Positions 22,101 to 40,496 of a stretch of DNA of 64,000 bases are shown here, piece after piece; positions within the stretch are counted from its first letter, which is position 1, and the number at the start of each line of letters is the position of its first letter. The notes under the pieces are model-generated. The model searched no databases, had not been told where the DNA came from, and saw nothing but the letters and a program-made list of their open reading frames with translations. The stretch is taken from positions 1 through 64,000 of the forward strand of contig CAWGVG010000007.1 in the NCBI GenBank assembly GCA_963825865.1, given 5' to 3'. The stretch is from an uncultured Nitrososphaeraceae archaeon. Its GTDB lineage: Archaea; Thermoproteota; Nitrososphaeria; Nitrososphaerales; Nitrososphaeraceae. The position numbers and the translations under genes are program-made.

Positions 22101-23215
22101 CTATTTCTTTTTCTTGACTACTAATATGTACAGTTCTCTATTATCTGTTTTCAAAGTCCTAGGTTCTTTCAATGGATTATCAAAACTAATTGGCAAGTAA
22201 CCTTTATTGATAGCACCATTCAGACAGTCATTTATCCTTGTATCCGTGTCAAAGTCTAGTGCTTCTAACTCATTGCACTTGTCTAACCATTTGTCTATAA
22301 TATCAAATGATTCCTCAAAAGATAGGTGCTTTACATTGACAAGGTATGGTGCAAGAATTCTCCAGATGCAATATTTTCTAAATCTAGGTAATGGAGTTTG
22401 CAAGAGCCTTTCAATCCAGAGTATCGATGATGAATTGCCATTTTCTGACAAAAATGTTTTAATCATTTTTTTACCCAATTTCCGTTCTTTATTATGTTCT
22501 TGGTCTATGAGGTAAGATAGGAATTTGCTATAAAGTAAATCTATAGGTTACTTTGGTAGTACCGCTCCATTTCTGCACAATTTGAACTTGGTTATAGTTT
22601 TTAGAATTAAATGAACCAGGTATTCTTAACATGCAATTCCTAAATGACACAGTATGGTAATGTTCTGAATCTGCTTTTCCATTGGACAGATAGTATTCTG
22701 CAAACCTTAGAAATTGCTTTGAAGGTTCCGTGAAGTTTCTAAACTCTGGACATGTTTTCTAAAATAATATTTTCAGATTCTACAATAGTAGGTAAATAGA
22801 AATGGTATCCATTGCCTGTCCAGAGTATAGTTGGTTCAAAATCTATAGAAAATATAGTTTTTATATTTGTCAAAATCTTTGCCTTAGCCAAATCTAACAT
22901 TTTAATATTGAAATTAAATTTGCCCAAGTCCAAGTCAATCATGAGAAGGCTAATTGCAAGAATTGCATTTTGAGAATGTCTATAGGCGCTAATTCTGCAG
23001 TCCAAATAGTCTGAATCCTTGTAGTAAGACATTGCTTCAAGTTTACTGTATACTGTAATCTGCCTGCCTTCGGTTAATTTCGTTGAGATAGTTCTGGGCC
23101 AAATTGAATCTTTTTCAAAATGGCTTAAGATAAAGTCTAAACCGTCGGCAACCTGTTTTTCAGTTAAATTATGGTCAAAATTGGTGTTTTGGTGGTAGCT
23201 AATGTTAATATCCAA
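22101..23215 (-). CDS. Archaeo-eukaryotic primase fused to PriX-like domain (frameshifted)
   Basis: LMIDLD (motif I), WTGNGYHFY (motif II); C-terminal WIERLLQTPL..FRKYCIWRILAPYLVNVK..WLDKC is PriX-like. Confidence 0.8.
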
Positions 23216-23292
23216 TCACCTGTACAGTGCATTGCTCACGAACAGAAAAAAATAAGGGGTGAGAAAGGCATGTTTGGGTTCAGATGGGCCAA

Positions 23293-23672
23293 TTAACTTG
23301 CAGCTTCTGCAAAGTACTTCGTATCTGAACCTAAACCTGTCTTCCATATTCTCTGTACCTTTACTCCTTTTTTCAGCAAAGAATTCACGGCTAGTAGAGC
23401 GCCAGTGCTAGATGCATTCCAGATTCTCTCTATGGTACTGTTAGGTTCCTTGACAAGGAACTGTACCATGGGCCAAATTTTCCCTTAGCGCCTGGGTCTA
23501 CCTTCAAGATTTCGAACACTTTGCCCGCACCTTCGAATTCCTTAGCACTTACGAACTTTGAATTCTCTGCTATGAATTCGCTGATCTTCCTAGATGCTTC
23601 TTCGTCTTCTGGAGTTATGTTTCCATTTCCATTACTTCCTGTTGATGCTTCATTCGATTTCTTACTTGTCAT
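23293..23672 (-). CDS. Putative single-stranded DNA-binding protein (frameshifted)
   Basis: Lies between polymerase and primase; C-terminal KTGLGSDTKY resembles the motif of viral OB-fold SSBs. Confidence 0.55.
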
Positions 23673-23741
23673 TTCTTACTCATTTCACTTTTCCTATCTA
23701 TGCAGATTAGCATTAACCAGCCACACCTATGTGACAGTTAT

Positions 23742-25640
23742 TCACATGGAGGTTCTTGCATCACTGTGACCATTTGTACTTTTAGACTTCTTATTTGGAT
23801 TTGTGACGCCAAATTCTTTAGCTAAGATTTCAGTAGGATATCCTGCAATTTGCAAGACTTCACTAACTGTGTTCCATAGACTTTGCTTGTACCATTGAGT
23901 ATCAATATCTGAAGGATTTGTCGACCAGCTTGAACTTGTCTTCTTTAAATTAGAAACAAAGTATTCTATCAACTCGCCTTTAAATTTGCCAAGCGCTTTA
24001 CCAATTGTAGCTGACTGACAGCTCTGAGATTTGTAGTCTTCTGGATTATCTCCAAGCACCTTTGATATTTTCAACAAATCTGCATTTACTATTTTGTTAG
24101 AATCTAAATCAGACATTGCACACCTTAAGTTGGGTACAGGGTCAATATTGTATCTAACAACATTATTTACCAATTGTTTGAATGCATTATTAACAAACTG
24201 GGATCGGTCGCTCTTTTTACCTTCCATGCCAACAATGTCAAGCGTGTCTTTGTTCTTGTCGTTTAATCCATAACCTATATAGTGTTTCTTGCCCTTGCTC
24301 AGAATACAATTAAAATATGTATTTTTAATTCCAAGTTCGATATCCAACTCTCTGTTGAATCTGTCTTGGAATTTTAAAAGAGATTCTGCATCTGGATTGT
24401 CCAAAAATAAGGAGTCCGTATCTCCATAGATAATTTTGAAACCTAACTCTTTAGCAATACTTTGCATTTTGGAAAGTACCTGCCGACCTAGGGCTGTTAC
24501 CAGTTCTGCAACTCTAGGATCATAGTAATCATATCTATTATCTCCAAAAACTCCATATCCACCATTAATTCAGAATCTTTAATGCAAGTTGCTTTGGCTT
24601 GTTTCCCAAGTCCTTTTGCTTTAATCTTTCAGCCCTGAACAATCTTAATTTCCTTGGAAAAGCACCTATCTCCTTCTGGCAAATCCAAGAATCTTTATTT
24701 ACAAATTTGCAATCCTTCAGGAATTTATCATCTAAAGTAACTGATATTTTGGCATTAGGGTCATCCTTGCAACACTTACAGTTGATTGTATCGAATGAAT
24801 AAATTGTAATTTATGCCAACACTAAGGTACAAACTGGTTGCATCCACAACCACAACATTATGGTAGAAATCTTGTTTCGGTTTAAGTACCTCTGCACCTT
24901 TGTATGTTCCACTAAACGAGGTTTTGACAAGTGGCTTGCATTCTTCATTTTTTAATCATTTTATCAAATATTGCACCCCACCATGTTGATAGATTTGTTC
25001 TGCAAACACGTTCAAAATCTAGTTCTGCTATCTGTGAGATTGCATACAATGCATCAAGAACCTCGTAGTTTTCATGCTTTGATAGTTCCATTACCAATTC
25101 AGAATCCCTAAACAGAATATTCTATCTGTTCTTCAATTGGCAAGTTTTTGAAATCTTTACCAGACAAGTTTTTGGTACTTTCCATATCCCAAAAGAACTT
25201 TCGAAACTTCGTCAAGTTTGTGGGTTCTGTAGGCGTTATTGTAAATGGTATCTTGGACCATTACCTTTCCGTAAACATTGCAGAGGTCGATATGCTTTCG
25301 GCCTTTTATATACGGCACACCTTTCTGACTCAAAAGAGACTACAGATTTAACTTCATTTGCAATGCACCTTTTGTGCAGTATTGACAGGTCAGATTTCTC
25401 GGCACTTCCTGCATTGTTCATATGCCCTGTAGAATTCCAGCCCATAGACAAGTCATAATCTATAAGTTTGGCACTTGCATGCTTCAAAAGTCGAATTTCC
25501 GATCCTCCAAAGTCTGACCTTAGCAGCACCTTGCTTTTCCCATGACTGTCTACAAAAGAAGTACTGCTTCAAGCACTTGAGTGACTGGGTCCCATTCGAA
25601 GTCAAATGCAACGTAGTTACCTAAAGTTTCGGCTACCTCT
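23742..25640 (-). CDS. polB: Family B DNA polymerase with 3'-5' exonuclease (several frameshifts; probably fused to the upstream helicase)
   Basis: ExoI VAFDFEW, ExoII GWNS..SDL, motif A VDATSLY, motif B KQLALKIL/NGGYG, motif C YGDTDSLF, KKHY. Confidence 0.9.
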
Positions 25641-25676
25641 GGCAATTTGGCCTGGTTTTGTGAAGAGAGTGAACAA

Positions 25677-25867
25677 ATATCGACTGAACCGACTGATCGA
25701 CTGACGCTAGTGATTTGAGCACGATTCTGGCCATTTTCTGCAGTCGATATGTCAGTCGATATTTGGTTTGTGTCAGATGGCATATCGACTGTAGTATCGA
25801 CTGAAATATCATTAGCGATTTGAGCACGATTCTCGGCTTTCAGTCGGTCAGTCGATATAGTCGATAT
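25677..25867. repeat. Two 105-bp units of inverted (AT)ATCGACTG / CAGTCGATAT repeats flanking a 17-bp core GATTTGAGCACGATTCT; candidate replication origin
   Basis: Core at 25712 and 25817; ten CGACT(G)-type copies, pointing inward around each core. Confidence 0.8.
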
Positions 25868-25922
25868 ATGTTCAGCCTTCTCGTAATTTTGCTTTCTGAT
25901 AATTTCCTGCTGGTACAATATG

Positions 25923-27972
25923 TTATTTCGAGGAGCGGCAGAGGCAGCAATCCGAGCTATCCATATAACCATCGTGTAATCTTTTGATGGTCCATTGCTT
26001 GTTGCTATTATCCACAGAATTCCTTTCAACTATAATTCCAACGCTACGAAGGTCGGCTTTGATAAGGTTAATCCGTCGGCTTAAGCTATTTGGTGCTTGG
26101 GGCCACAGCTTGCCATTGCTTGTCTTAATCTTCAAGTTATCTTGTGCAATTTTTGTCAATAAATCGAGCAGTTCTGTTATAGTTCCATTCCAAAGAGGTG
26201 GTACCTTGCTATCTATGAAAATCTCTATTGCCTTTCCAACGACGTCATTCTCAACTACTTCTCTAGTCTGCAGGTCTATATTCCTAAAGTAGGCTTCGAT
26301 AAATTTGCCAGGTTCATATCCCATAGAGCATGACACAATCTCTCCAACTTCTGCAAAGTCTGCCATTCTAGGATACTCTCTTAATTTGAGGCCGTCGGGG
26401 TTGTCTCTCTGAAACTGCAAAACTCTGGCTAGAATGTCAAAGATGTATCCTAAAAGCTCAGGCCTTATCTCGTAGAACTTTTGCCAAATCTCTTTGAGCA
26501 AACGTTTCTTATATTTTGGAATTGGAGTATGTTCTATGATAAGTCCTCTATCAACGAGGTCCGACTTTGTAGCACCTAGGTTGATTCCATTTATTCCAAT
26601 GCAATGCATGAAATTGTATATGATATCGTCATCATTGCTATACAATTCCCTCTTGGAAAATCCACTGCCTGTTACAGCCCTGCATAGGATGTCAGATATG
26701 GATTCGTAAATTTTTGAAATGTTATCAAAGTAGCAAACGTAATTGTGCGCAAGTTTCTGTATCATGCTTTCAATACTTCTCGAGAATGCCAATGTCTTAA
26801 TCAAACTTGGGTCAACTAGCATCTTGATTAGTTCTTGGAGAGTTGATTTCGCAGTTCCTTTCTCACCATATAGCATTAGTGCAGGGTGTTGGATTTCTGG
26901 ATAAAACAAGGATACTATGTACACCTTGAAAAGGAGCTTGTTATCTTCAGATTCCTTTACATTTGTCAAGTCCATAAAACTGTCAAATATATCCTGTGGA
27001 TATTCCTTCGAAGGATATACCTGTGGTTTTTGGTTTGATGTACCTTCTAAATATCACGGTCGCATATTCTATATTCCAACCTCTACTTGCAGTAATTCTA
27101 ACAACTTGCCAATCTTCGTTAGTCAAATCGTATAAAATTGAAGTGCCCTTATTGACATCATTCTCATCGTCTATTGTTTCCTTTGCTACACGCAAATGGA
27201 GGTCTCTTTGGATTTTGCTAGAAGCGGCCTTTGCCTCAAGTATCCTAATAACGTTGTTTAGGTTTTCTGTATTTAGGGTGTCAGCATCAAGTTCTTCATC
27301 GGCACAACCACCATCATGCAATGCTTTTTTTTCTCCATCATTTCCACCCTCATTATCAAAACATTCATCTACAGTATGTGCCTTGGACTGATTCTTCTCT
27401 TCATCATCACTTGTATCCTTTTGAGCATTTTTACCAATGGTGAAATCATAATAAACATTACAAAGCCAGTTCTTGAACCTTGAACCTTTGATCGGTAATA
27501 CTTCCAAATGGTTGTCAATTTTGACTGCAGCATGGGGCTGTCCCAGATTATCAATAAAAAAATCTTGGCAATGCTGCTTGGCTAATTTCATCGCCAGTAT
27601 TGCGGCAGCTCCTTTACCTGATAGTATCTGAATCTGGGAAGATTCTTTATGGCTTTTGCCGTTCAGTTCTTCGGCCTTGTTGTATAGTAGGTATTGCAAG
27701 TAACCGTTGCTTGCATCCATCAAGAAAAGTAATACTTTGCTAACTGCGTTTTTGGAAAGGCCAGGATACCTTAAGGCTTCCTTTTCAAATGCATCTCTTG
27801 TGTTAGTTAGCTTCTTTGGGTCTATCTGGACAACTACCATTTGCCCTCCTTTGAAATTGACATTTATAATATTGGATTGCCTAACGAATGAGGCAACTCC
27901 TAGAGCTTTAAGTTGTTCATTAACTGGTATGAAGGTAACTGTATCCTTTTTGTCCTTCTCTACCAATTTCAC
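25923..27972 (-). CDS. Mobile-element replication ATPase/helicase (SF3/AAA+-like), frameshifted near 27040
   Basis: Walker A GEKGTAKST, Walker B YFDN, INGIN, DLVDR putative arginine finger, C-terminal wHTH-like WPQAPNSLSRRIN. Confidence 0.8.
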
Positions 27973-28178
27973 AAATCACCTTCAACAATGAAAAGCCCAG
28001 TCCTAGGCTCATAACCTGTAACATGTTTACAAATGCAAGGACCAAAACCGCAGTCTTCACAAAAATAGGGTAAAGATTTATCATTGACTCGAGTATATTG
28101 ATCAGGTCCTTGACTTTGACAAGCATCATAAAAGTAAACTTTATCTTTACGTTGTTGATTATTCTCTAATGTAGTCAT
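27969..28178 (-). CDS. Small Cys-rich zinc-binding protein
   Basis: CEDCGFGPCICKH; stop overlaps the helicase start. Confidence 0.6.
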   Translation of the reverse strand: MTTLENNQQRKDKVYFYDACQSQGPDQYTRVNDKSLPYFCEDCGFGPCICKHVTGYEPRTGLFIVEGDL

Positions 28179-28422
28179 AGTAATTCAACACTTCTGTGGC
28201 TGCGCTTGCATCTGTCTGTTGGTAGGTGAGAGAAGAATTGGTTTGAGGGCCTATCTTCTTCTCAACCTCGTAACTGTGACAAGGACAAATACATCTAACA
28301 ATGAATGTTTTTGTAAAATCTACGTATGAACCAGTGCAACTATCACAAGGACAGAGACACGCAGTAACAGTCGCAATTTGTCTTAAATTTTGAGCTTTTG
28401 CTTCTTTGGCCGTTTGGTCCAA
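28159..28422 (-). CDS. Small Cys-rich protein
   Basis: CLCPCDSC...CICPCH. Confidence 0.6.
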   Translation of the reverse strand: MDQTAKEAKAQNLRQIATVTACLCPCDSCTGSYVDFTKTFIVRCICPCHSYEVEKKIGPQTNSSLTYQQTDASAATEVLNYYDYIRE

Positions 28423-28424
28423 AC

Positions 28425-28607
28425 TTACACGGCATCTCCGTTATGTTTGAAGAAAGTTATAGTAGTCCTGCAGTGCGAACACGTGCATACAAATTGATTC
28501 GTTCCTGTATAAAGCCAAGAATGTCCACAGCGATGGCAAATGACTTGACGCCCTTCCTTCTGGATTATTACTATCCCTTGTATTTTTCCGGGAATAATTT
28601 TGCCCAT
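28425..28607 (-). CDS. Zinc-ribbon protein (archaeal virus/plasmid type)
   Basis: CHRCGHSWLYTG..CTCSHC. Confidence 0.7.
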   Translation of the reverse strand: MGKIIPGKIQGIVIIQKEGRQVICHRCGHSWLYTGTNQFVCTCSHCRTTITFFKHNGDAV

Positions 28608-28615
28608 ACACAGTA

Positions 28616-28644
28616 GTTATATAACACATTAGCGATATGTTATA
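28616..28644. promoter_or_regulatory. Divergent promoter/operator: palindrome GTTATATAAC overlapping TATAACA-N11-TGTTATA
   Basis: Lies in the 61-bp gap between divergent genes 28607(-) and 28669(+). Confidence 0.5.
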
Positions 28645-28668
28645 GGAGATCATTAACGGAGCATTTCA

Positions 28669-30084
28669 TTGAAAACAATCGATACTGGAAAGGACAAAAA
28701 ATTTGTAGACATAGTTTACAAATATGATGCTCTCGGACTTGGATTTAGAGAGCTACAAAGAAAGACTGGCTTCAGTAATGATGGCACTACTTCGCGGATT
28801 AAACGTCTGGTTGAATTTGGTATCTTGGAAAAAGATACACATGGGTACTATCACATAACTAAGAAGACAAAGACCAAATACGAAAATGGAACTATGGTCA
28901 TACCTTCTGATATAAGGAGTGAAAAGCATAAGGATAAAAAAATAAGACGTGAAAATGCATACACAATATTAGTATCCAAAGCAGCAGGTGGGGATTATCG
29001 TTACAGACCTACATTAAAACCACAATACGGTAATTCTTCCATGACTGATGTCAAGACAGGTAAGGATGTAAGTTATTCTGGTTATCATATTCCAGGAGTT
29101 GGACTATCAGACTTTAAAAAAATTAAAGGTCCTGCAACATTAGATAAGAGAATACATGTAGGACAATCAGAATTGTTTGCATACCCAAAAATGGATTTTA
29201 CAGAATCAGAAATACAGCAATATATTTACAATCTAAAACATCGTAAATATCCAGTTCTTAAGGAGATTACAATATTTGATCACAAATTTCTTTCTTATGT
29301 ATTTGATATTGACAATGATAATCCAAATTTAATAACATTGAATCGGGAAGGTCATACTACGGAGGGTGAAGAAGGCAAACCCAAACATAGGTTAGTTGTT
29401 AAACGGGAAAAAGAAGAAGATAAACTACAATTTTATCATGATATTTTCTACAATGAAAATAGTCATCACAATGGCGTAGAGATCTGTTCAAAATTGATAT
29501 TCGATATCAACAATGAAAGGACAATAAAATCATTAGGATTGTATACTCAATACAATAATGATAATAATGATTTTTCAGCCGAGATATGGCGAGAACAGCG
29601 GTACATTATTGCAGATCCCTTATTACAGGAGTTCATTATAACATGCTGGACTATTTTAGGTTTTGTCCTTTTTAGAATGAATGAAACATATGTGTATAAA
29701 CGATGGCCTAAGCACCGAGTGAGAACAGGTAACGGAATTAGAGATATGTCTATCAAAGTTGGTAAGTCATATGTCTATCACTTGTATATTAAATGGTATA
29801 AACGATTATTTGGAACGTACAGATTTACCCAGCATAATTTCTCACAGCTTTTAGCAAGAAAAACGAATTTCGAAAAATTGGATAAAAGTACCCAAAAAGA
29901 GCAACTTACAAATGCAGATGATTTGATAAACTCATATGATAACGGAATAAAGGAAAATTATAAAATCATTATGGGTAACAAATATGTAGCAATACGTGAT
30001 AAATACAAAGATGTGGTGACAGCACTACTGGATATAGTATATCCAATGTTTCTAAGGGAACTACATGAGCAACATAAAATTTAA
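28669..30084 (+). CDS. Large protein with N-terminal winged HTH
   Basis: LGFRELQRKTGFS..RIKRLVEFGILEK..YHIT; intact 471 aa. Confidence 0.75.
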   Translation: MKTIDTGKDKKFVDIVYKYDALGLGFRELQRKTGFSNDGTTSRIKRLVEFGILEKDTHGYYHITKKTKTKYENGTMVIPSDIRSEKHKDKKIRRENAYTILVSKAAGGDYRYRPTLKPQYGNSSMTDVKTGKDVSYSGYHIPGVGLSDFKKIKGPATLDKRIHVGQSELFAYPKMDFTESEIQQYIYNLKHRKYPVLKEITIFDHKFLSYVFDIDNDNPNLITLNREGHTTEGEEGKPKHRLVVKREKEEDKLQFYHDIFYNENSHHNGVEICSKLIFDINNERTIKSLGLYTQYNNDNNDFSAEIWREQRYIIADPLLQEFIITCWTILGFVLFRMNETYVYKRWPKHRVRTGNGIRDMSIKVGKSYVYHLYIKWYKRLFGTYRFTQHNFSQLLARKTNFEKLDKSTQKEQLTNADDLINSYDNGIKENYKIIMGNKYVAIRDKYKDVVTALLDIVYPMFLRELHEQHKI

Positions 30085-30192: not shown

Positions 30193-31471
30193 CTAGGCTT
30201 TATTATTATTATTTAGTATACCGGATTTGTATAGCATTTGTGCTGTTTCGTTTAGCTGATTTTGGTTCGTTATACCTCCAAGTGTAGATATCAAAGTTTG
30301 TAATTGTGACTGCATTGTATTGAATTGCTCCTTCATTGTCTTAATTTCTTCATCCTTCTCTTGTAGTTTTCCCCTAATAATGTATTCATTATCTTTACTT
30401 TTTTGTGTAAGCTCTGCAACCTGTTTTCCTAATACGACTTTGTCGTTACTAATTGTTAGTAAATCTACTGCTTTCAAATAATCTTCAAGAACTTCCTTTT
30501 CTTTAGGTTTATAATATGACGCGGATACACCAATATTATGGCCCATAGTTATCTCGACGTTAATAGGCCTCATGACCTGCTCTGCATGACTTTTATAAAA
30601 CTTACGAAATCCATGTGCAGCCTTCCATTCATGACGTTTTGCTCCTTCCTTGAGAGGTTGGCGAATCCCCTGTTCCCATAAAGCACGTTCTAAAAGTCGT
30701 TTCATACCGCTGCTTTTGAGCTTCCTTGGATTTGTTGCCAAACCCCATTTGGCTCCATAATCTACATTAGTTGTCTGCCATATATCACGCATCAACCAGG
30801 ATTCTCCTGTTACCTTTTCACCATAAGATGCACGAAAGTCCATCCAATCCTTGAGTGAACTGTAAGTCTCAGGTGTGATAAAGGAATAATATTCCTCTCT
30901 GTCTCCTGCATAAACTATTAATTTAGCTGCGATAATTTCACCTGAACTATTAGTCATGGGAATTACATGCTTCCACTGTAAGTAATCCCACGAGCCTATT
31001 CTAATCCCTGATGAAACCATTGTGCAAACAATTGGTTTTATTCTCCTATCGGGATATTCAACCAACTTTTGGATTTCTTGTATTGTTGGTGCTCTGTCGT
31101 TAGCGAGCTTTTCCAGCTCTAGGTAAACCACGGGCTATTTTCTTCCAATTTAAGATTATGTCATTCATTTCACAAAATAGCTTGGTTGCTCTATAGTAAT
31201 TAGGAATAGTACATTCTGATATTTCTCTCTTTTTTGACCTTTCAAGTTCATAAGATATGAAGTCTATGAGGGCCTCCTCTGCCCATTGGTAGCTCTCTTT
31301 GGCCTTGAAGAGAAATTCTTTAGCTTGCTCCTCTAAACTGCCTTCAACTCTCAAATAGTCAAGAAATATCCTAAAACGACGCGGGTATTGCCTTCTTGAT
31401 TCAGCCGCTTTTAAAGCATACATAAAGACAGCAATTGGATTCTTTTGTTCTACAGCAACTGACGATGTCAA
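30193..31471 (-). CDS. Tyrosine recombinase/integrase (frameshift near 31110)
   Basis: SSGIRIG (R), AHGFRK (HxxR), MGH..SASYY (H,Y); starts ~60 bp past the tRNA-Arg 3' end. Confidence 0.9.
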
Positions 31472-31528
31472 TTTCCTATTACCACTACTAATAATAAAGT
31501 GGGCTTAAATAAAGGGACAAGATTGACG

Positions 31529-31633
31529 CGGGCTCGAAGGGATTTGAACCCTCGACCTGACGCTTAGGAGGCGTCCGCGCTATCCATTCTACGCCTATTT
31601 TTTTTTCATACTAATAGTCTGCGCCACGAGCCC
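31529..31633 (-). tRNA. tRNA-Arg(CCT) with a 30-nt non-canonical intron at position 15/16 (31589-31618)
   Basis: Acceptor GGGCTCG/CGAGCCC, anticodon arm GACGC-CTCCTAA-GCGTC, T-arm GAGGGTTCAAATCCCTT. Confidence 0.92.
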
Positions 31634-31843
31634 CAATATTTTGAACATTAATAGCGCCATTTTAAGTGTTTATTATGTATGTCTTTAGTAGAACAAACTC
31701 TTGTCGAAATCAAAGTACTTCCTCACCTGTAACTCTATGAGTTCTAAAAAGTAGTTTAAATCCGCAATATACTCGATACCGGAAAGTCGTTGAGCTATCC
31801 CGAACCTAGTTTCGTCAACCACGGGAGCATAACCGTAGTTCAT

Positions 31844-32029
31844 TTATTCTGGTTCTGTCTTTGGCGAACCCATATAAGCAGATCGGCCATGGTCGATGTA
31901 ATCGGAGGATATTATTTCATCAAATATTGTTTCATTTTTGTTATTGTATGCGTCAAAGTAGCGTTGAATAATAGCCTTATTCATTTCAATTTGGGACATT
32001 ATGTCGTTAGTATTCATAGGGGTGATCAC
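31844..32029 (-). pseudogene. SnoaL-like ester cyclase N-terminal fragment
   Basis: NKAIIQRYFDAYN..FDEIISSDYIDH. Confidence 0.65.
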
Positions 32030-32135
32030 TAAAGAAATTGTTAAATAGTTTTACTACGACATCCGGCTGCTCTTCTGCAATATAATGTCCTGAATTTGTA
32101 ACTGTAACACCCCTGAACATTTTGAGCTAATATTT
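32029..32135 (-). pseudogene. Diverged copy of the 3' end of the hydrolase gene at 34454-35500
   Basis: CTAAAGAAATTGTT..GGCTGCTCTTCTG..CCTGAATTTG..ACTGTAACACC..TGAACATTTTGA matches ~34480-34585. Confidence 0.75.
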
Positions 32136-32313
32136 CTTTTCTTTATCGCACAACATAATTGTTGCAAGTTCAGTCATGTACTCTATCCACACTGACCTGA
32201 CACATAATTAATTTTGAAACATAAAAAAAGAAAAAAGCAGGTATATGTTGACCGGCAGTCATTTGTATGTAAATGTACTGTTTTGAAGTAATACCTGTAC
32301 TGTAGGATCAACT

Positions 32314-33591
32314 CTACCAGATTGAGCCATGGCAAAGCAATGAGTTGACATGAACTGCTCGCGCTCCACCAAGCCTATTTTCCCATTTAGGCAACATGTT
32401 ACTTACACAGTTTTCGCCAACCGCATCAATGTATTTGGAGAAAATGAGCCATGGATTGTCAAAACGTCCTACTTGACTTGAAACCTTGCCAAATTGGACT
32501 TCCTGGTTTGCTCTGCCAGCTGCCTTTTCCAAATCAGAAACAAATTCCTTTTGTACTATTACATCATTTCTTGTTCCAAGTCTAGTAAGATGGCCAGCAA
32601 CAATTGTGTCAAAGTCATAGTTGTTTAAGGTTATGTCATGAGCTTTGATAAAGCCTGCAGTATCTTTAGCTATTGCCAAATAAGGAAATGGAACCCATCC
32701 AGGAAATATGACATCAACTAACATGAGTACCTTTTGTTTTGGAGCATAAATGAATATATTTCCAGCTAGATGGTTAACGCCATAGTAGTCTAACTTTAGA
32801 CTTTGATTTCCAATCTGCAAGGTGTAGTTCTTGGCAAAAGTAACTGTAGGAATTGGTGGTACCATGGAAGCATTCTTGGCTACACTTTTGGCTCTTTGTA
32901 ACTCAGCTGCAGTTTCTTGTTGAGCTATAAAAGTAGCATTCTTTGGGAATATCCCTGCGGCACCTATATGATCTATATGAGCATGACTGTAAATCACATA
33001 AGTAACTGGCTTGTCTGTCACTTCTGCTATGGCTTTGAGATAGTTATTGCCAATTGTTGGAGGAGCATCAACTGCTACAACACCTTTGTCTGTTACCATA
33101 AATATAGTCTGGTAAGCTCCATCAGTTAGCCAATAAAGACCACCCTTAATTTGCTGAACTAGATATCCTTTAGCAGGTATTGGAGGTCCTTTTGTTGCTT
33201 CAGGTAGTTGGATATTAGCACCAGTAGCACTACTATTACTAGACTGCTTTATTGCTTGGGATGCGAATTTAAGATATGCTGTCTCTTCATCTTCTTGAAC
33301 TAGAGCATTTGAACTTTGAATACCAATGAGCTGTTGTTGTTGTGCCATTGCAGTATGATTTTGGTTTAATACTGGTGTAAAAACAAACAATATGCTAATT
33401 GTAATAATGCCAATCATAAGAAACGTTGTCTCAGGTATATGATGTGAGGAAGCATGGAATGTGGGTTTATCTTTCCCGACCATTACAGAATCTGGTCCTA
33501 GGTTTGTTATAAAAGTATAGCCTTGCATTGTACCAATCACTATTATGGTTACGAATTTTTCTCGATACTCAATACGTGGCAGACTAATCAA
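32314..33591 (-). CDS. Secreted or membrane-anchored metallo-beta-lactamase-fold hydrolase
   Basis: YSHAHIDHIG, VDAPP, VAGH; N-terminal TM segment; start and 3' end uncertain. Confidence 0.88.
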   Translation of the reverse strand: MISLPRIEYREKFVTIIVIGTMQGYTFITNLGPDSVMVGKDKPTFHASSHHIPETTFLMIGIITISILFVFTPVLNQNHTAMAQQQQLIGIQSSNALVQEDEETAYLKFASQAIKQSSNSSATGANIQLPEATKGPPIPAKGYLVQQIKGGLYWLTDGAYQTIFMVTDKGVVAVDAPPTIGNNYLKAIAEVTDKPVTYVIYSHAHIDHIGAAGIFPKNATFIAQQETAAELQRAKSVAKNASMVPPIPTVTFAKNYTLQIGNQSLKLDYYGVNHLAGNIFIYAPKQKVLMLVDVIFPGWVPFPYLAIAKDTAGFIKAHDITLNNYDFDTIVAGHLTRLGTRNDVIVQKEFVSDLEKAAGRANQEVQFGKVSSQVGRFDNPWLIFSKYIDAVGENCVSNMLPKWENRLGGARAVHVNSLLCHGSIW

Positions 33592-33634
33592 TATTACTGC
33601 AAATACTAAATCAGATATTCAATGTTTAAGTGTC

Positions 33635-34441
33635 TTAAACACAATTACAACAACCTTTGCATATTTGGGTCATTAAGGTGTCAACAATCAAAGGCGCGCC
33701 AACGGGCAAGCTTTGTACTCCATATACCAACCGAACATGGCCGGCCTTTGGCCCAAAGATCTGAACAAACAAGTTTGACGCTCCATCCGCCACGGATGCG
33801 TGTTCAGCAAATTGCTCCGTCGTTGCCATCAGCACCGTCAACTTGAGCAGCGCTTTCAGCCGATCGAGGGGGGGCGGAGTGTCAACTATGCCAGGCGAGA
33901 TTGTGTTCACCCGAATACCGTCAGCCAGGAATTCCATCGCCAATGCGCGGTTAAACACCGGAATGGTGGACTTCGTGAGCACAGGGAGCGAAATCGCTGC
34001 GCCGGCCAACGGCTGATCCGTCAAAACCGTCGAGATGCCTACGATATGGCCGGACTTCTGTTTGCTCATTTGCGCGGCCACTTTTTGCGTGATGAAAAAG
34101 TAACCCGCAACGTTTGTGCCAATCATCAACTCAAAGTCCGCCGGCGTATAGTCGGTGAACGGCTTATTAATGTAGATGCCCGCGTTGTTGACCAGGAGTT
34201 CAATGCGGTCAAAGTGTTTGATGGCGGCATCGGCCACTTTTATGGAGTCCTTTTTGCCAATGTCCCAGTCCACAAGAATGAGGTCGGATGAGGGTTTCAA
34301 ATCTTTCGATTTGCTGATGTTGCGCGAGTTGGCGATCACACGATAACCGTGTTGGAGCAGCGCTTGGGTGATGCCGAAGCCGATACCGCTGGAAGCGCCG
34401 GTGACAATGGCTACTTGTTTTTCGGTGATAGTTGTATTCAT
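33635..34441 (-). CDS. Chimeric ORF: short-chain dehydrogenase (truncated) fused to a RidA/YjgF-like C-terminus; GC-rich
   Basis: TGASSGIG, LVNNAG, VNTISPG then VADGASNLF..HVRLVYGVQSLPVGAP. Confidence 0.8.
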   Translation of the reverse strand: MNTTITEKQVAIVTGASSGIGFGITQALLQHGYRVIANSRNISKSKDLKPSSDLILVDWDIGKKDSIKVADAAIKHFDRIELLVNNAGIYINKPFTDYTPADFELMIGTNVAGYFFITQKVAAQMSKQKSGHIVGISTVLTDQPLAGAAISLPVLTKSTIPVFNRALAMEFLADGIRVNTISPGIVDTPPPLDRLKALLKLTVLMATTEQFAEHASVADGASNLFVQIFGPKAGHVRLVYGVQSLPVGAPLIVDTLMTQICKGCCNCV

Positions 34442-34453
34442 AAGGGATAGTTC

Positions 34454-35500
34454 TCATCTAGTTTTAATGGTATTACCGCTAAAGAAATTGTTGAGTAGTT
34501 TTACTAGAAAATCTGGCTGCTCTTCTGGAATAAAATGACCTGAATTTGGAACTGTAACACCCTGAACATTTTGACCTAATATTTTCATTCCATATATGAC
34601 AGTAGGCATAGTAATATTACCTCCGAATGTTGGAATATATCCTCCTCCTAGCGCCAATACTGGCATTGTAAGCTTAGTCTTTGAATAATTCTCATTTTGA
34701 ATCGCATCCTGAGGAAAAGCCCGATAGTGCTCAAATCCCGCATGCATTGCGCCTGGAACAGAATAATGGCTAACATATTCATTGATATCTGCTTGCGTTA
34801 TCGCAGCTGGATTATACGCAAGATTGTGAAAGAACCATGATAAATACTTCATCTCTTTTCCTTGTACAAGGGCTTCTGGTACGTCCGGTGTTTGATGGAA
34901 TATGGCCCACCATAATGGCATTCTACCAGCAGGTGCGAAACCGGGAATCGTTAATTCCATAACTGCTAACCTCTTTACATCCGCAGGATGTGCAGCTGCA
35001 TATGAATAGGTTACCTGTGTTCCGATATCATGACCCACTAGGAAAATTGTTTTAAATCCTAGCTGAGTAACTAGGTGATGTATATCCTCAGCTACGGTTT
35101 TGCCATCATAACCAGTTGTTGGTTTTGACGAGTCTCCAAGGCCTCGCAGATCAGGCGCAACAACAGTATAGTTCTTGGCTAAAGCTGGCATTACACGATG
35201 CCATGCATACCATGTTTCCGGCCATCCATGTAATAAGACTACAGGGTCACCATGGCCTCCAATAACATAGTGCAATTGAATACCATTAACAGATGCCGTA
35301 CGATGAGAAAATGTCATGTTAGCCATCTGAAAAGATATACCAGTAGGCTGTTGTTGTTGTTGTTGTGCCATTGCAGTATGATTTTGGTTTAATACTAATG
35401 TGCAAACAAATATGCCGGTTGTAACAATAATAATCGTAAGAAAAATTGCTGTCAAACAAAATGAGAGATAAAGCGAATAGTTGTCCTTTTTTTCATTCAT
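34454..35500 (-). CDS. Epoxide hydrolase-like alpha/beta hydrolase with N-terminal TM/signal
   Basis: LLHGWPE, PDLRGLGDS, VGHDIG, SGHFIPEEQP. Confidence 0.92.
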   Translation of the reverse strand: MNEKKDNYSLYLSFCLTAIFLTIIIVTTGIFVCTLVLNQNHTAMAQQQQQQPTGISFQMANMTFSHRTASVNGIQLHYVIGGHGDPVVLLHGWPETWYAWHRVMPALAKNYTVVAPDLRGLGDSSKPTTGYDGKTVAEDIHHLVTQLGFKTIFLVGHDIGTQVTYSYAAAHPADVKRLAVMELTIPGFAPAGRMPLWWAIFHQTPDVPEALVQGKEMKYLSWFFHNLAYNPAAITQADINEYVSHYSVPGAMHAGFEHYRAFPQDAIQNENYSKTKLTMPVLALGGGYIPTFGGNITMPTVIYGMKILGQNVQGVTVPNSGHFIPEEQPDFLVKLLNNFFSGNTIKTR

Positions 35501-35634
35501 TACGAGATCTGTTTCACTGGCATGTAATAAGAATAGTGGTAATTGGAACTAACACGCAAAGGATCAACTTATTGATTTAGGGAAACTTGCTGTCAAAGAC
35601 TAACACTATTCTTGGGGGCTGAGCTCAGTTGAGG

Positions 35635-36108
35635 TTATAATAACAGTGACAAACTTCTTCCTTTTCTAAAGAAATCAGCTTCGACTAGTAAAATGAATTT
35701 GCGGTTATCCAACGCTCTGTAGGCGTCTATGTGGTTCGAAGGATACGCCTCAATTCTGTTGCCATTTAGCTCCAATACCGTTTCCTTATTGGCAAAAGTT
35801 AACCCCAGCTTTCGCTCAAACAATGATTTCATTCTCTTAATCAGCATGATGGCAATGTCTATGTTAGGGCCTGTAACAATGCACATCTGTGAATTTCTAT
35901 AATCGTTATTTCTCAAGCATAGCCATGCCATAAACCGCAGAAAGAATTCTGTTACTCCTAATCCTGTTGCCTTCTTTATCCAAAGGTGCTTATCCTTGAA
36001 ATCATGGTTCAGCGGATTACAAAAGTCTGGAGAAAGCAAAGCCTCATACAACAATTCTTGGTAATCGAAAATTGGCTTTTCCAATCCCTCTTTTGCCATA
36101 CATGACAA
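35635..36108 (-). pseudogene. Terminase large subunit-like ATPase fragment
   Basis: KHLWIKKATGLGVTE (Walker A-like), IEAYPS, FILLVEADFF (Walker B with D>V); truncated. Confidence 0.7.
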
Positions 36109-36189
36109 CTCCTTTTATATACAACTTTTATATGATGGCAGAAATCACTCAAATGTGTCGCAACAATAATTAAAAAACTTGAATTGTTG

Positions 36190-36766
36190 TTATTTCTCCA
36201 GTTTGTTCTTCCTGTTTTTCTTCTCCTTCTTTATCTGAGCTTTCGTTCTCATCATCATAATCAGCTCTTTAGATTCTTTGTTGTCGTCTTCATTGCCACC
36301 ATCAGAAGAAGAAAAAGATGACCTTTTTATTTGATCTTCTTTATCTTTATCTTTATCTTTGGACTTTCCAGATTCTGATACAGACCTTATGGCGTCATCG
36401 ACTACTGTAGCATTTGTAAGCAAGTCTAGCTTCATAGAATAGCATTCTTTGGCTAATGACAAAGATTGTATCTTCTCTCTTCTGTCTTCTGCATGCTCCG
36501 AAGTATTCCATGCTTCCCTTAGAATTGCAGTCAACCCAACCAGACATTTCTGGTACTCTTCTGGCAGCCTTTCATCAATATATCTTCTGATGTTGGACTT
36601 TGCCTGCTGTCTAAGGTATGATAGGTCTCTGTTAACAGCACCATTAGATACCTGTAATGTCTGTGCTATCTCCCTCTGGCTATGTCCCTTGCTGCTTAGC
36701 TCCTGAACTTTGTTTCTGTGCCTTGTTTATCTTCAATTTGCAAGCTCAAGTGTTCAATTTCACCAT
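36190..36766 (-). CDS. HTH protein, terminase small subunit-like (frameshifted)
   Basis: KVQELSSKGHSQREIAQTLQVS..NRDLSYLR upstream in frame with LSLAKECYSMKL; directly upstream of the TerL fragment. Confidence 0.7.
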
Positions 36767-37299
36767 GCTTCTTTTAATCGGCTAAACTTGTCTTTATTCG
36801 TTTTTGTAATAGATTTAAAAATTAATACTTGCAAGATATTGATTTTCATAGTTAGGCTCCTTCAGAGTGTAGCAGTAAGCCGGAGCTGACGCTGATACTG
36901 AGGTATTAACACTAGATTTAACTGCAGTAACCATACGCATATACGCATATACTCTTATGTAGTAGAATTACAAATTAATGGAAATGGTAAGGAACAGAAC
37001 AAAACATTGGCCAACATGAAGGTAAGGATTTGGTTAATTGTAGACCTGATACATCTATGGGAACTAGATTCCTAGATCATTGCAAAAGCTAAGGTGTACC
37101 CACGGCGTACAGATGACACGGGTAAATGGAAGTATGTGTCAAACCCTTATTTTATAAATTCGGAATTTTTAGAGGAAGCCATTAAGACAATGAAGGAGCA
37201 CGGAGTTAGATTTGACGTTACAGGTGAGTCTAATTATTTTCCTGGCAGGACTTTTCAAATAAGATTCGAAAAGTTAAGATGACTGGCAATATCCGACAA

Positions 37300-37436
37300 A
37301 AAGTTATTAGAACTCCGACGTTGTGGTGCCTACAATGAACCAGGGAGAATTTCACCCATTTCAATACCAAAAGGAACTTTCGTTATTTTGTGAGGAGAAC
37401 ATTATTCAGTTCGAAGCTTACGGCCCGTTGACCATA
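37300..37436 (+). pseudogene. Aldo/keto reductase internal fragment
   Basis: VVPTMNQGEFHPFQYQKEL..FCEENIIQFEAYGPLT. Confidence 0.7.
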
Positions 37437-37488
37437 AGATGAATAGCCTTAATCTTTACAACTATCCAACGGTTTGTTGTGTCGGTTG

Positions 37489-37689
37489 TTATTTTGTTGT
37501 AATGAAATTACACAGCACTTTATCCATGTCTTTTAAAACCAATTCACAATATTTGCTTGTAGTAAAACCTTCAATTGCTAAACTAACCTTCATTTGTATT
37601 TCAAGATCATCCTCATTTTTCTTAGTAGTAGAAGTTGCTTCTGCTGCTGTTAATGTTGCTTCTAATGATTTGTTTGACCGCCTGGCCAT
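37489..37689 (-). pseudogene. Possible N-terminal remnant of a thaumarchaeal integrase
   Basis: KVSLAIEGFTT..CELVLKD resembles integrase N-termini; sits at the island/core boundary. Confidence 0.35.
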
Positions 37690-37738
37690 AATACATGTAT
37701 CCTAGTCTGGTGTACAAAAATACATTTAATAATAATTT

Positions 37739-38464
37739 CTATGGGGCATTATTATATAAGGCATATATTTTCTTCTTATATGCAATTTGGAATCCCAGAT
37801 TTTTGTAAAATTGAATTAACCCTTCCTTGCTAAATGTTTGAAGAAATAGAAAACCTAAATTCTCTTGTCGAGCTACTCTCAAAGAAATTTTTATCATTCT
37901 CTTTGCTATCCCTTGACCCCTAAAAGAGGAAAGTGTTCCTAGACAATAGAGGCCCATTAAATTATATCTATTGAATAATGCAACACATCCACCAGGAATT
38001 TTACTGTAATTGTCATTTATATATGACACTAGTAGTGTAAGTTCTTTAAAATGTAATTTAACTACTTTTTCCACTTCAGATTTCCAATCGCGTGCGTCAA
38101 ATGATTTACAAAATACATCTATCCAAACCGGTAGCGAATGTAAGTCAATTTTTGTTACTTGAATATTATATTCATCATTTTCGAAGTTAGTCAGATCAGA
38201 TTTTAACACTTGCATTGTGTCTATGAGCGAAAATCCCCTTTTCAACAATATATTTTCTAGGTCCCTATCATTATCACTAATATACACATAACTATTCAAT
38301 ACTCTCTTTGAAAATATTCTAATTGTTTTCTCGATGATGGCCTCGATATCAGGACAAGCTACATTATTCAGTCTATTAAAAAAGTAATCACCTGCAAGTT
38401 TTTCATTGATGAATAGATATCTGCACAATTCCTTATTCTGATGTGTTGTGTCCATAAAGAGCAA
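37739..38464 (-). CDS. GNAT family N-acetyltransferase
   Basis: LGTLSSFRGQGIA...FYKNLGF. Confidence 0.85.
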   Translation of the reverse strand: MLFMDTTHQNKELCRYLFINEKLAGDYFFNRLNNVACPDIEAIIEKTIRIFSKRVLNSYVYISDNDRDLENILLKRGFSLIDTMQVLKSDLTNFENDEYNIQVTKIDLHSLPVWIDVFCKSFDARDWKSEVEKVVKLHFKELTLLVSYINDNYSKIPGGCVALFNRYNLMGLYCLGTLSSFRGQGIAKRMIKISLRVARQENLGFLFLQTFSKEGLIQFYKNLGFQIAYKKKIYALYNNAP

Positions 38465-38924
38465 AAGTCGGATTCATTATATTCCATACTTCTTTTATTA
38501 AATTTATTGTTGTTTGTTGTGCCACTATCACCCATCGCAATAGTTATGGATTTATCTAAGAATTTAAATTTATCAACTGAAGATTAATAATTATTATCAC
38601 ATATTGTAATTATGTTAGCAGAGTATGATTATGTAGCCATACCGCTATCACTCCACCGTTTAATTTAAAGGAATTAATTTTTTTTATCAGCCTTTCAGTA
38701 ATTCGATATTCTTCTATATCATTGCTAGTTGGTATCACTTATCGATATAACGATAGGATCATTTGGAATTTCATATGCAAGAGTATTTGCAATGATATTT
38801 CACCAAAATCTAAACTTGCTATGTCGTTCAAATAATGACGAATTAAAACTATATTGTCAAATTGGATATTTACATTGTAAATTCGATAAGCTTATTTAAG
38901 ATAAATCGACTGATCCATCATAAT

Positions 38925-39150
38925 ATGTCTTCTGGTCCAGAGCTTGGCCTTGCTACTATGTATCGGGTAATTAAAAAATCAGGTGCAGAGAGAGTTAGTG
39001 ATGATGCTGCCGATGAACTTCGCAAGATTCTCGAAGATGTTGCGGAGAGAATCTCCAAGCAAGCAGTTGGATTTATCAAATCATGCAGGTCGAAAAACGA
39101 TAAAATCTGAAGATGTCCGTCTTGCTGCCAAGAATATATTAAAACTTTAA
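38925..39150 (+). CDS. Archaeal histone (one frameshift near 39070)
   Basis: RVIKKSGAERVSDDAA + HAGRKTIKSEDV. Confidence 0.92.
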
Positions 39151-39348
39151 TCAAATTGGTTTCCTGAAGATCGTTCTACGAAAATAAATTATAAAAAATA
39201 TCTCAAAACTGTTATATGATATACCTTCGCATTTCCTATGCTTGTAGAATGGCAAGTTAGGCGACAGAGTTATAGAAGTCAAACTGACTCATATATCAAC
39301 TATTAACTTTAAATTTAGAATACTGTAAGAGTTACAGTAGTACGTTGT

Positions 39349-39438
39349 GGTGGGGTGGCAGAACGGCTATGCGTTCGCCTGCAGGAAATGAGATTTGCAG
39401 CTAGCGAATTTACAAGGGTTCGAATCCCTTCCCCACCT
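39349..39438 (+). tRNA. tRNA-Cys(GCA) with an 18-nt canonical intron (39385-39402)
   Basis: Acceptor GGTGGGG/CCCCACC, anticodon stem TTCGC/GCGAA, T-loop GGTTCGAATCC. Confidence 0.93.
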
Positions 39439-39931
39439 CACTATTATAGAATCATAATACATAAAGTCGACTCCTCTTATATACCCGAATAAAACAAAAG
39501 CTAAATGTATAATACCTTTAGTATGTGGTAAAATTAGACGTAGGTTGTAAGATTCTTATCGATAGAAAACACCAAATATTCGTGTAGATCTATTGGTAGA
39601 TATGGTTCCACTATTTTTATTGGTTATCCTTTTAATTCTTCCGAAGGGAACGGTAAGAAATGAAGGCACTTTTTTCATAATGCTAACAATTTTAATTGTA
39701 CTTATCGTAGTTGCAATAGTTCTTAGAAGAAAAAGACGTGAAAATAGATAACAATAAGGGATTTGAATTGGCATTTTAAAAAAGCCTCCATGTTATATAC
39801 CTTGCTCTTTTTACTTCTGGCTACCTAGAATACAAACTTGCGGACCGAGAAGCGTATCTTATACGATTAACTCGAGGTTTGAAATTAAGTAAGTTGGATG
39901 CTACTATAGTCGGTAAAATGAGCATATGCTG

Positions 39932-40496
39932 CTAAATGGCAAATCGTTCTATCTTACTAGTTTCAGTTATTTGTGACACTAGTCCTTTTATTTTATCTAT
40001 ATCTATTTCGAAGTAAAGACCTGTAGCTTTTGACAATTTCTTCATTGATCTTTTTAATATGGAAATACAAATATCTGATTCATCTTTTTCATCATGGACA
40101 AAGGCTGTCTGCGATTAAAATGATTCCATTCAATAGGTCTTTTTCTTCTGCATGAGAATTTTTCCATACATATTCAAGAATTTCATGAGCACTCCAATAC
40201 TTTTCATCATTAAATAAAGATCTTGCAGTTTTTATTGCCTCATCTTTATTCATGTGTTTTTCAACTATGTGTTGATATTCTGATAACGGCATAATTAACG
40301 TGAGTTTATCGATAACATTTTCAACACTTTTATTGTCCGGAAGACTTGCATCAAATTCAATGCAGTGCTTCGATACACGTGTATCACGTACAATAATTTT
40401 TGAATCTGAAATTAAAACCCTGGCTCTCTTTAGTAATCTCGTTGCATCCTTTGGAGTGTAAGATTGATTCCTCAGATATATTATGTATCTTTGCAT
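39932..40496 (-). CDS. DUF309 domain protein (frameshifted)
   Basis: LFNDEKYWSAHEILEYVWK..LNGIIL. Confidence 0.8.

Follow-up and report, generated by a model that had tools for sequence, protein, structure and literature searches.

A precedent for polypeptides that unite helicase, primase and family B DNA polymerase (PolB) is HelPrimPolB, known from gp55 of Lactococcus phage 1706 and its kin, the polymerase of which is placed in an EpsilonN-like clade in the portions of the two reports that treat it (PMC4889955, PMC7544198). A helicase-PolB fusion was reported in 2025 in eukaryotic polinton-like viruses (PMC12721341). The integrated elements of thaumarchaea, as outlined in the relevant part of PMC6563490, possess a tyrosine integrase, a tRNA target, their own replication proteins (primpol-S3H, MCM and, occasionally, PolB), variable cargo and no structural genes; PolB is named there only in NitEve-E6, ThaMY3-E2, NitGar-E5 and casposons. 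The subject of the present study is a window of 64,000 nucleotides (nt), the whole stretch of DNA analysed (contig CAWGVG010000007.1 of an uncultured Nitrososphaeraceae archaeon), and, within it, a three-gene replication block with an upstream integrase, located on the minus strand at 22.1-31.6 kb according to stop-to-stop open reading frames (ORFs). The leading gene of the block joins a predicted superfamily 3 (SF3) helicase to a PolB. Literature searches brought up no archaeal helicase-PolB fusion, although the element annotations of PMC6563490 and the PolB group lists of PMC7544198 may hold one. It is likely that the gene and the element represent a fused replication module on an integrative element.

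Read along the minus strand, window 27972-23742 aligns end to end with intact proteins of Nitrososphaeraceae. The fused protein has the layout N-terminal domain, predicted D5-like SF3 helicase, low-complexity linker and PolB1-like polymerase with exonuclease, and its intact homologues at 81-84% identity are 1352-1427 amino acids (aa) long. The homologue search compared the 376-aa P-loop ORF of the window with longer proteins; among the best 120 of the 370 matches, 15 carry the polymerase family PF00136, and ten of these 15 measure 1240-1427 aa, are 81-84% identical (59% for P0011) and have 94-99% of the query covered. The 1413-aa protein P0003, for example, contains both domains in a single chain, with PolB at residues 1021-1338 (PF00136, 127.3 bits), and the 1468-aa P0084 comprises a Prim-Pol at 13-176 and PolB at 1114-1401. 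Besides, a family scan of 201 Nitrososphaeraceae genomes, the source assembly (G000) included, revealed stop-free single frames running from the helicase through PolB at five loci in three genomes (1382-1401 aa). The helicase-PolB fusion is real, and it is an uninterrupted ORF in relatives. A fusion of about 1400 aa had been suggested by the initial annotation, which was made from the letters of the window, and both the fusion and its size are borne out by the homologues and the open frames; helicase and PolB are not always encoded separately.

Separate forms are present among the relatives too: PolB occurs by itself (650-700 aa), and the helicase occurs either by itself or fused to a Prim-Pol. 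A metagenome context scan with local tBLASTn queries covered 74 loci, many of them on contigs too short to tell. At 13 loci helicase and PolB are neighbours: they share one open frame at four, are separated by at least 10 stops in every frame at eight, and have three stops in the best frame at one more. The family seems to be widespread, strong matches (best E ≤1e-50) to the element-type helicase or PolB having been found in about 58 of 200 sampled Nitrososphaeraceae genomes; the search of genome contigs by single protein yielded one locus only.

Table 1. Features of the replication module and of related loci (coordinates without a genome or locus label refer to the window)
Feature	Location	Strand	Details
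N-terminal domain and predicted D5-like SF3 helicase	25971..27972	-	two frame pieces, junction 27039
Linker, putative origin	25660..25885	-	about 200 nt, nested and palindromic; built from 8-nt iterons ATCGACTG
PolB part (exonuclease and polymerase domains, without canonical N-terminal domain)	23742..25642	-	eight frame pieces, PF00136
Small OB-fold protein, candidate single-stranded DNA-binding protein (SSB)	23293..23675	-	two frame pieces; one base missing after 23468
Probable archaeo-eukaryotic primase (AEP) with C-terminal PriX domain	22101..23215	-	three frame pieces; intact relatives 318-369 aa
Variable genes between integrase and module: three small Cys-rich ORFs	27969-28607	-	
Variable gene, 471-aa ORF	28669-30084	+	no Pfam or PHROG match
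Predicted tyrosine integrase	30193..31504	-	two pieces, 31504-31103 and 31134-30196; intact relatives 427 aa
tRNA-Arg (anticodon CCT)	31529..31633	-	insertion of about 30 nt in D-loop region; Rfam RF00005 at 31537-31595, 35.4 bits
Fused open frame	G002:C49		1401 aa
Fused open frames	G073:C208 and C589		1396 and 1398 aa
Fused open frames	G013:C47 and C130		1392 and 1382 aa
PrimPol-helicase-PolB ORF	G136:C53		1709 aa
Different P-loop module ahead of the same PolB	G069:C43		1792-aa ORF
Split PolB junctions	L067:5837-5959, L072:6801-6923, L073:1367-1489, L069:5724-5846		

HelPrimPolB resembles the window fusion in combining an SF3 helicase and a family B polymerase in one chain of a mobile element, and an AEP primase is added in P0084 and in the ORF of G136. 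The order differs, being helicase, primase, PolB in the phage proteins, whereas here an N-terminal domain or PrimPol is followed by the helicase and then by PolB; the N-terminal Prim-Pol of P0084 is likewise unlike HelPrimPolB. A BLASTP comparison of P0003 with gp55, the helicase of which (DUF5906) lies at 181-292, gave E 0.014 and 24% identity over 162 aa. The window PolB is nearest to archaeal PolB1 and belongs to archaeal hosts, unlike HelPrimPolB of bacterial phages. It looks as if the phage fusions are analogous and unrelated to the archaeal one, which looks like a variant of a known theme, independent of and convergent with them.

A DNA-binding domain plus an iteron origin is the usual logic of primase-helicase replication proteins. 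Those of the pRN1 ORF904 type, SaPI5 Rep, Cch, D5/E5 and NrS-1 have the same predicted helicase fold as the window protein, and sister proteins within its family carry an N-terminal Prim-Pol (PF09250). Unlike in these primase-helicases, a complete proofreading PolB is appended here, and in the window clade Prim-Pol appears to be replaced by a separate primase of the PriS-PriX type. The elements of PMC6563490 share with the window the predicted integrase, the tRNA, replication genes, variable cargo and the lack of structural genes; neither a helicase-PolB fusion nor a PriS-PriX gene or OB gene is described in the corresponding part of that source, the annotation tables of which may hold an overlap. 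Casposons and pipolins are also integrated elements with their own family B polymerase. They differ from the locus, where a predicted tyrosine recombinase and an apparently primer-dependent PolB1-like polymerase with a primase are encoded. Around the module no terminal inverted repeats were detected, either in the window or in the two relatives compared; no search aimed at Cas1 itself was made. The term self-synthesising, which invites a comparison with such elements, seems overstated, the polymerase being closest to the nucleic-acid-primed PolB1 and a separate primase being encoded.

The polymerase family PF00136 matches window 23745-24569 with E 2.9e-18 (66.3 bits, cut-off 23). Family B polymerases have the consensus DxE in ExoI, DxxSLYPS in motif A and DTDS in motif C; the translated window frames show FDFEWD for ExoI, DATSLYLS for motif A and YGDTDS for motif C, and the columns of all three are invariant in a 12-sequence alignment. 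The PolB is spread over eight short frames between 26029 and 23742, and the ORF translations confirm that the ExoI frame overlaps the helicase stop and carries the low-complexity linker. The nearest solved chain is Sulfolobus solfataricus PolB1 (1s5j, E 1.1e-49), followed by Thermococcales PolB (about 1e-25) and Pol alpha (about 1e-20). The alignment to the PDB chain begins at 1s5j residue 317, and ExoI is situated about 10 residues past the linker, so the canonical N-terminal domain is absent. The best NCBIfam models belong to the PolB1-type PRK05761 set, the score of NF004417 (220.8 bits) being below its equivalog cut-off of 780. With the PolB of the host, which has about 900 aa, the element PolB shares only some 30% identity. 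In a maximum-likelihood tree, obtained by a quick search only, 34 element PolBs stood apart from four host PolB1 (SH-aLRT 100); of the polymerase phylogeny outlined by the initial annotation, it is this separation from host PolB1 that was obtained, with four host references only. The element polymerase is therefore best classified as PolB1-like and not as a PolB1 orthologue. On the quick tree, with state labels assigned in this study, the fused state requires at least five changes on well-supported branches, the ‘alone’ rows L052 and L053 beginning at contig edges and possibly being cut fusions. A separate observation is an 829-aa frame at G000:C31:3586-6072, in which a primase of the PriS-PriX type directly follows the C-terminal two thirds of a related PolB, without an intervening OB gene; both a fusion of polymerase and primase and an indel artefact are conceivable.

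The P-loop protein is contained in ORFs 27972-26983 and 27053-25923, the Walker A motif (GEKGTAKST) being found in the latter. Of the two frame pieces that make up the N-terminal domain and the helicase, one is 56% identical to P0003 (residues 4-288) and the other 83% (residues 289-644). An AlphaFold model was obtained for P0012, a 63%-identical homologue, from 32 homologues, with a mean predicted local distance difference test (pLDDT) score of 74. Its fold matches, all within the Foldseek top 50, are Cch, African swine fever virus PrimPol, monkeypox virus E5, vaccinia D5, NrS-1, SaPI5 and PriRep1, and the D5-like matches have E 7e-6 to 1e-4 (best 7.3e-6) and a probability of 1.0. On this structural comparison, the P-loop part is a predicted D5-like SF3 helicase.

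The relatives also include forms in which the polymerase is divided. At four loci (L067, L069, L072 and L073) the helicase ORF continues past the linker into the exonuclease domain, takes in about the first 90 residues of the latter together with ExoI, and ends with a conserved ...GCAGCATGATG, its TGA overlapping the ATG of the remaining PolB ORF. With the ExoI segment on the helicase chain, two chains would be needed to reconstitute the exonuclease domain. A -1 frameshift was considered for these four loci and rejected, as the junction is an ATGA stop-start overlap without a slippery site. The PolB ORF begins at the split point in eight loci, which corresponds to two changes on the quick tree; the split form may have a single origin. 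Two further loci, G155:C6:148395-152840 and G000:C15:124426-128560, have helicase and PolB in the same frame with one or two in-frame stops between them. In G155, a genome of 10 contigs that is 97% complete, one stop directly follows ExoI. This form could be a recent fission, a pseudogene or a case of read-through.

The window copy of the fusion gene is broken. Alignment of P0003 with the three minus-strand frames gives 10 frame pieces and nine frame changes; the chain f2, f0, f1, f0, f1, f2, f0, f1, f2, f0 spans P0003 residues 4-1400 and needs no in-frame stop along its length. It had been supposed that one indel would join the pieces; nine corrections are needed. The neighbouring primase, small ORF and integrase are broken too (Table 1). 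The source assembly (4.98 Mb, 62 contigs, 35% G+C, reported completeness 81.8%) has only 48% of its bases inside ORFs of at least 150 aa and a single ORF of at least 1000 aa in 4.98 Mb. In the same assembly, RpoB domain 6 is in three frame pieces and PolD DP2_N in two (C44:25097-26220 and C21:80355-81141). Logan contigs (contigs, not reads) of four soil-metagenome runs from three studies, with a depth of 2-8, were aligned on window 22101-28000; they represent related populations, and it is not certain that they are of the same strain. Base 27039, at the first predicted junction, is absent in all three covering runs, and the two bases at 25562, at the third, are absent in one run. The independent contig X1 record 6 (24707-25522), which contains five predicted junctions, differs from the window by three mismatches and five gaps over 811 nt, and this excess of gaps points to sequencing error and not to decay. 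After 23468, in the small ORF, a C is inserted in all four runs. Contigs of two independent runs over 25780-26073 have one gap each against the window, the gap position not being listed, which fits a frame correction near the 25923 stop.

Because RpoB and PolD are broken in a similar manner and near-identical contigs do not have the extra bases, the nine frame breaks of the window copy are most likely assembly indel errors, and a gene of about 1400 aa is most likely intact in the organism. Programmed frameshifting, including Euplotes-like shifts, was considered for the +1 changes and rejected: the homology changes frame well before the stops, and the independent contigs are without the bases. 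Eight of the nine junctions, in 24571-27039, are +1 (an extra base or two missing ones), which is an unusual error profile, and only some of the junctions are at homopolymers, e.g., the A7 run at about 24945. Pseudogene calls from this indel-ridden assembly are unsafe and must be checked against relatives, as must readings in which a fusion ‘needs one indel’.

In two relatives as in the window, the DNA that encodes the linker contains the strongest inverted repeat of the module. Seven of the window's eight exact copies of ATCGACTG are found in 25679-25856 (0.88 expected in 64 kb), in the layout (++)(--)(++)(---) around two copies of a 15-nt spacer. In aligned relatives, ATCGCCTG occupies the same sites in both orientations, i.e., A was changed to C in concert, which replaces Thr by Pro where the units are forward and Val by Gly where they are reverse. 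These changes have no protein-level rationale, so the constraint seems to be on the nucleic acid. Other lineages have the words TATCGTCG, TATCACCG, GTGGAGRT, TGGTGGAG, GAGGCAGT, ATCGTTAC and ATCACCGG at the same place; at least six words differ between lineages, changing in concert. In nine of the 10 genes examined, the most repeated 8-mer is located in the linker and present in both orientations, G069 having none. RNAalifold predicts 55 pairs in the linker, seven with changes on both sides, and as single-stranded DNA (ssDNA) the linker folds with -49.8 kcal/mol (z -8.3). Repeated 8-mers were also detected directly 3' of a stand-alone helicase match at three loci (both orientations in two), and one repeat cluster directly 5' of a stand-alone PolB match at one locus. 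Between helicase and PolB, a word repeated 3-5 times in both orientations was found in 12 of the 13 metagenome loci, only four of the 13 being fused.

Repeated short units in both orientations are the classical make-up of origins bound by SF3-helicase initiators. In SF3 systems the origin is next to the winged-helix end of the initiator-helicase, as described in the pertinent part of Kazlauskas 2016 (PMC4889955). The chances that the iteron palindrome in the linker is the origin of replication seem evenly balanced, and with the same reserve it may be supposed that in some lineages the helicase gene has extended through the origin into PolB. After excision, the circular element would fire from the origin inside the linker-coding DNA. 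Part of the helicase, probably a winged-helix or the N-terminal domain, would recognise the iterons and then unwind the DNA; the PriS-PriX-like primase would prime, the tethered PolB would extend and the OB protein would coat ssDNA. The conserved block of about 6 kb showed neither a clamp nor a clamp loader, ligase or flap nuclease, so the host clamp, ligase and flap-processing enzymes would presumably still be needed, and the supposed large independence of the host replisome is not supported. A broader proposal, to which somewhat less than even credence is given, is that in these integrative replicons of soil ammonia-oxidising archaea the initiator-helicase and the replicative polymerase are covalently or obligatorily coupled, that the origin, a palindrome of lineage-specific iterons, is translated as a disordered tether, and that the forms make up a series from separate genes on either side of the origin to a fusion across it and on to a re-split in the exonuclease domain, with the ExoI strand kept on the helicase chain.

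The small ORF aligns with conserved proteins of 118-168 aa, and the small protein is kept beside PolB across divergent modules. The OB gene directly follows PolB in 18 of the 74 metagenome loci, many of these being too short to tell. The AlphaFold model of the small protein is an OB fold (beta1-3, alpha, beta4-5) with a core pLDDT of 78-96, and a Foldseek search with this model gave no match at E ≤0.001. Judging by the model, it is probably an ssDNA binder. In the primase, the PriX family PF18689 (cut-off 25) scores 30.8 bits at window 22104-22547 and 31.3 bits in a homologue, on which NF033412 reaches 48.9 bits, just below the cut-off of 50. The PriX chains 4wyh/5of3 of the PDB match with E 0.005, identity to relatives is 51-57% in three high-scoring segment pairs, and the AEP motifs IDLD and GNGYH were read by eye in the translation. 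This primase is probably of the PriS-PriX type. The four minus-strand products proposed at the outset were all recovered, PolB by PF00136, the helicase by its Walker A motif, the primase by PriX and the small ORF by its OB-fold model.

Upstream of the module, the integrase gene starts about 60 nt downstream of tRNA-Arg(CCT), the 3' end of which faces the integrase. The acceptor stem, anticodon loop and T-arm of this tRNA were read by eye; ARAGORN missed it because of the D-loop insertion, and on ten related loci it reported no tRNAs, the tool also missing the intron-bearing tRNA there. The same tRNA and integrase arrangement is present in G013:C130. PF00589 gave E 0.004 on the window integrase; the scores recorded with this family, 17.4 and 22.4 bits, are below its cut-off of 27.1. 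The 427-aa homologue from G013:C130, 47% identical to the window integrase over 294 aa, matches the integrase family phrog_1 with 5.9e-14 and XerA of NCBIfam with E 9.1e-10 (38.5 bits vs a cut-off of 220). Tyrosine recombinases have the consensus R...HxxR...H...Y, and the candidate residues R (SGIRIG), HxxR (HGFRKF), H and Y (SYY) are visible. The Rfam match and the phrog_1 match support the tRNA and the tyrosine integrase that had been placed beside the module.

Relatives keep the order of integrase, variable genes, helicase-PolB, OB gene and primase, while the variable genes of 27969-30084 themselves are not conserved. DNA similarity between the window and five relatives is confined to 22129-27945, i.e., the three-gene block, and the 6009 nt that two G013 copies share at 85% are this block only. 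Eight of the 74 metagenome loci have an integrase match on the same strand 2-4 kb upstream, and two further loci have a short match abutting PolB. Probably, an integrative plasmid-like (cryptic) element was inserted at the 3' end of tRNA-Arg(CCT) by a tyrosine integrase, and 22.1-31.6 kb represents the end of it that serves integration and replication.

Several points weigh against a fused replication module on an integrative element. The helicase fold is derived from one predicted model with TM-scores of 0.2-0.5; no helicase family was found in Pfam (window ORFs and homologues) or PHROGs, and a profile of 32 homologues matched no helicase chain in the PDB. The catalytic half of the primase (residues 1-240) has no profile match in Pfam, PHROG or NCBIfam and is recognised by its motifs only. 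The best VIA matches of the small protein are the mitochondrial SSB Rim1 and the PRD1 SSB P12 at Z 5.6, with toxin B subunits at Z 5.0-5.1, and a Z below 8 may reflect a common arrangement. The independent contigs are of low depth and from related populations, so that a decayed copy in this strain is possible, and the other copies of the module in G000 are partial and diverged. The palindrome may act as RNA or be a relic, its compensatory changes fitting base pairing or iterons alike. At 1-22 kb, where the scan by single ORFs covered 20 of about 50 ORFs of at least 85 aa, host-like genes occupy the flank; they encode proteins of the tetratricopeptide repeat, FAD-binding, alpha/beta hydrolase and response regulator kinds, and the remaining scanned ORFs gave no match. 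The 24-nt 3' end of the tRNA occurs once in the window at up to three mismatches, which gives no second attachment site (att); the best candidate for the far end is a 31-nt identical copy of C7:31513-31543 on contig C2 (46759-46789), with further candidate partial tRNA copies on C10 and C62, and partial copies of the tRNA 3' end are common in relatives. Circular forms, the presence of which had been envisaged, were looked for in 21 whole metagenome contigs of >5 kb, and no terminal direct repeat was found. A 24-nt repeat at 14927/34582 (two mismatches) was considered as att and rejected, being near chance level and located in a paralogous gene end.

The window copy might be a genuinely decayed pseudogene, the remnant of a dead element with nine real frameshifts and a primase, an OB gene and an integrase broken likewise. 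Nine frame changes within 4.2 kb, several of them away from long homopolymers, would agree with this, as would the at least 12 other partial and diverged helicase/PolB fragments of G000, none of which is full length. Decay is nevertheless improbable: the essential RpoB and PolD are broken alike in an assembly generally poor in long ORFs, the frame chain contains no in-frame nonsense codon, the catalytic motifs are intact, and the independent contigs are without the extra bases at 27039 and 25562 and have five gaps in the span of five junctions. It is less probable still that helicase and PolB are separate genes in the window and that the 25923 stop is real. The window helicase part is 83% identical to the fused P0003 clade and aligned throughout, the homology carries on in the +1 frame upstream of this stop, and contigs of both runs across it have a gap, even if separate genes do exist in eight of the 13 metagenome loci and the G155 and G000 C15 copies have in-frame stops between the two parts.

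As to the linker, its palindrome may be not an origin but an mRNA structure, for example a pause or attenuation before PolB, or a tolerated repeat that encodes a flexible tether. In the fused forms this DNA is transcribed and translated, compensatory pairs are part of a long hairpin that makes up the consensus fold, and the lineages with the ATGA stop-start testify to a tuned expression of both halves within the family. A flexible tether, however, would not keep reverse-complement symmetry, the iteron cluster is also present beside stand-alone helicase and PolB genes and between separate helicase and PolB ORFs of metagenome loci, and units in both orientations that change in concert among at least six words are the make-up of initiator-bound origins; the mRNA or tether explanation is rather unlikely. 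It is unlikely, to a greater degree, that the module belongs to a provirus with structural genes too divergent to recognise or beyond the contig end. Another contig may hold the far boundary, family matches are lacking for many ORFs, and the small OB protein is nearest to mostly viral clusters in a protein atlas (score 0.93-0.94, no alignment). Against this, no capsid, portal, terminase or packaging family was found in the 38 window and relative ORFs scanned, nor any conjugation family among scanned ORFs, in agreement with the initial annotation as regards capsid and conjugation genes. IMG/VR yielded no relative by single protein or by the 12-sequence alignment, the coverage of the protein by phage and archaeal virus records reaches 36% at most, with an identity of ≤24%, and the genes downstream in G013:C130 encode CHRD, response regulator and NHL-repeat proteins.

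The coupling of helicase and polymerase is a central organising principle of replisomes and is usually achieved via accessory proteins. A natural single-chain SF3 helicase-PolB from archaea would be a compact and tractable model for such coupling, its fused, split and separate relatives serving as built-in controls, and would also be a candidate tool enzyme in the form of a strand-displacing, self-unwinding polymerase. To our knowledge, there is no genetic system for Nitrososphaeraceae; a self-replicating element with an origin, an integrase and an att site would be a plausible start for a shuttle vector. An origin inside a protein linker would mean an unusual overlap of DNA-level and protein-level constraint. 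If the reading as a fused module with its origin in the linker is true, the module would amount to a minimal helicase-polymerase replisome of archaea, one assembling on the very sequence by which it is encoded.

Other observations concern the surroundings of the element and the rest of the assembly. The host region of window 31528-45255 is repeated at 96-99% identity in C8:101693-111177, where window 32136-34478 is missing and the integrase behind this tRNA-Arg(CCT) is another one (70% nt identity). The bin thus combines two haplotypes or two strains, or else includes a large duplication; in either case a single hot spot is occupied by different elements. The metallo-beta-lactamase-fold genes 32314-33591 and 34454-35500 have N- and C-terminal segments that are 88-93% identical (32029-32146/34479-34595 and 33320-33387/35337-35410), a local duplication absent from the C8 haplotype. 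A second tyrosine-integrase homologue, at 50507-51499 (+), is located directly behind tRNA-Arg(GCG) at 50371-50446 (+) and probably marks a second integrated element running to the right. ORFs with the motif ‘IVFIEKEG...TRGYLT’, which we take to resemble Toprim/Spo11-like proteins, are found at C2:46691-47559, beside the att-like 31-mer, and at C3:202282-202782, ahead of a truncated PolB, and perhaps represent a further gene that recurs in such elements.

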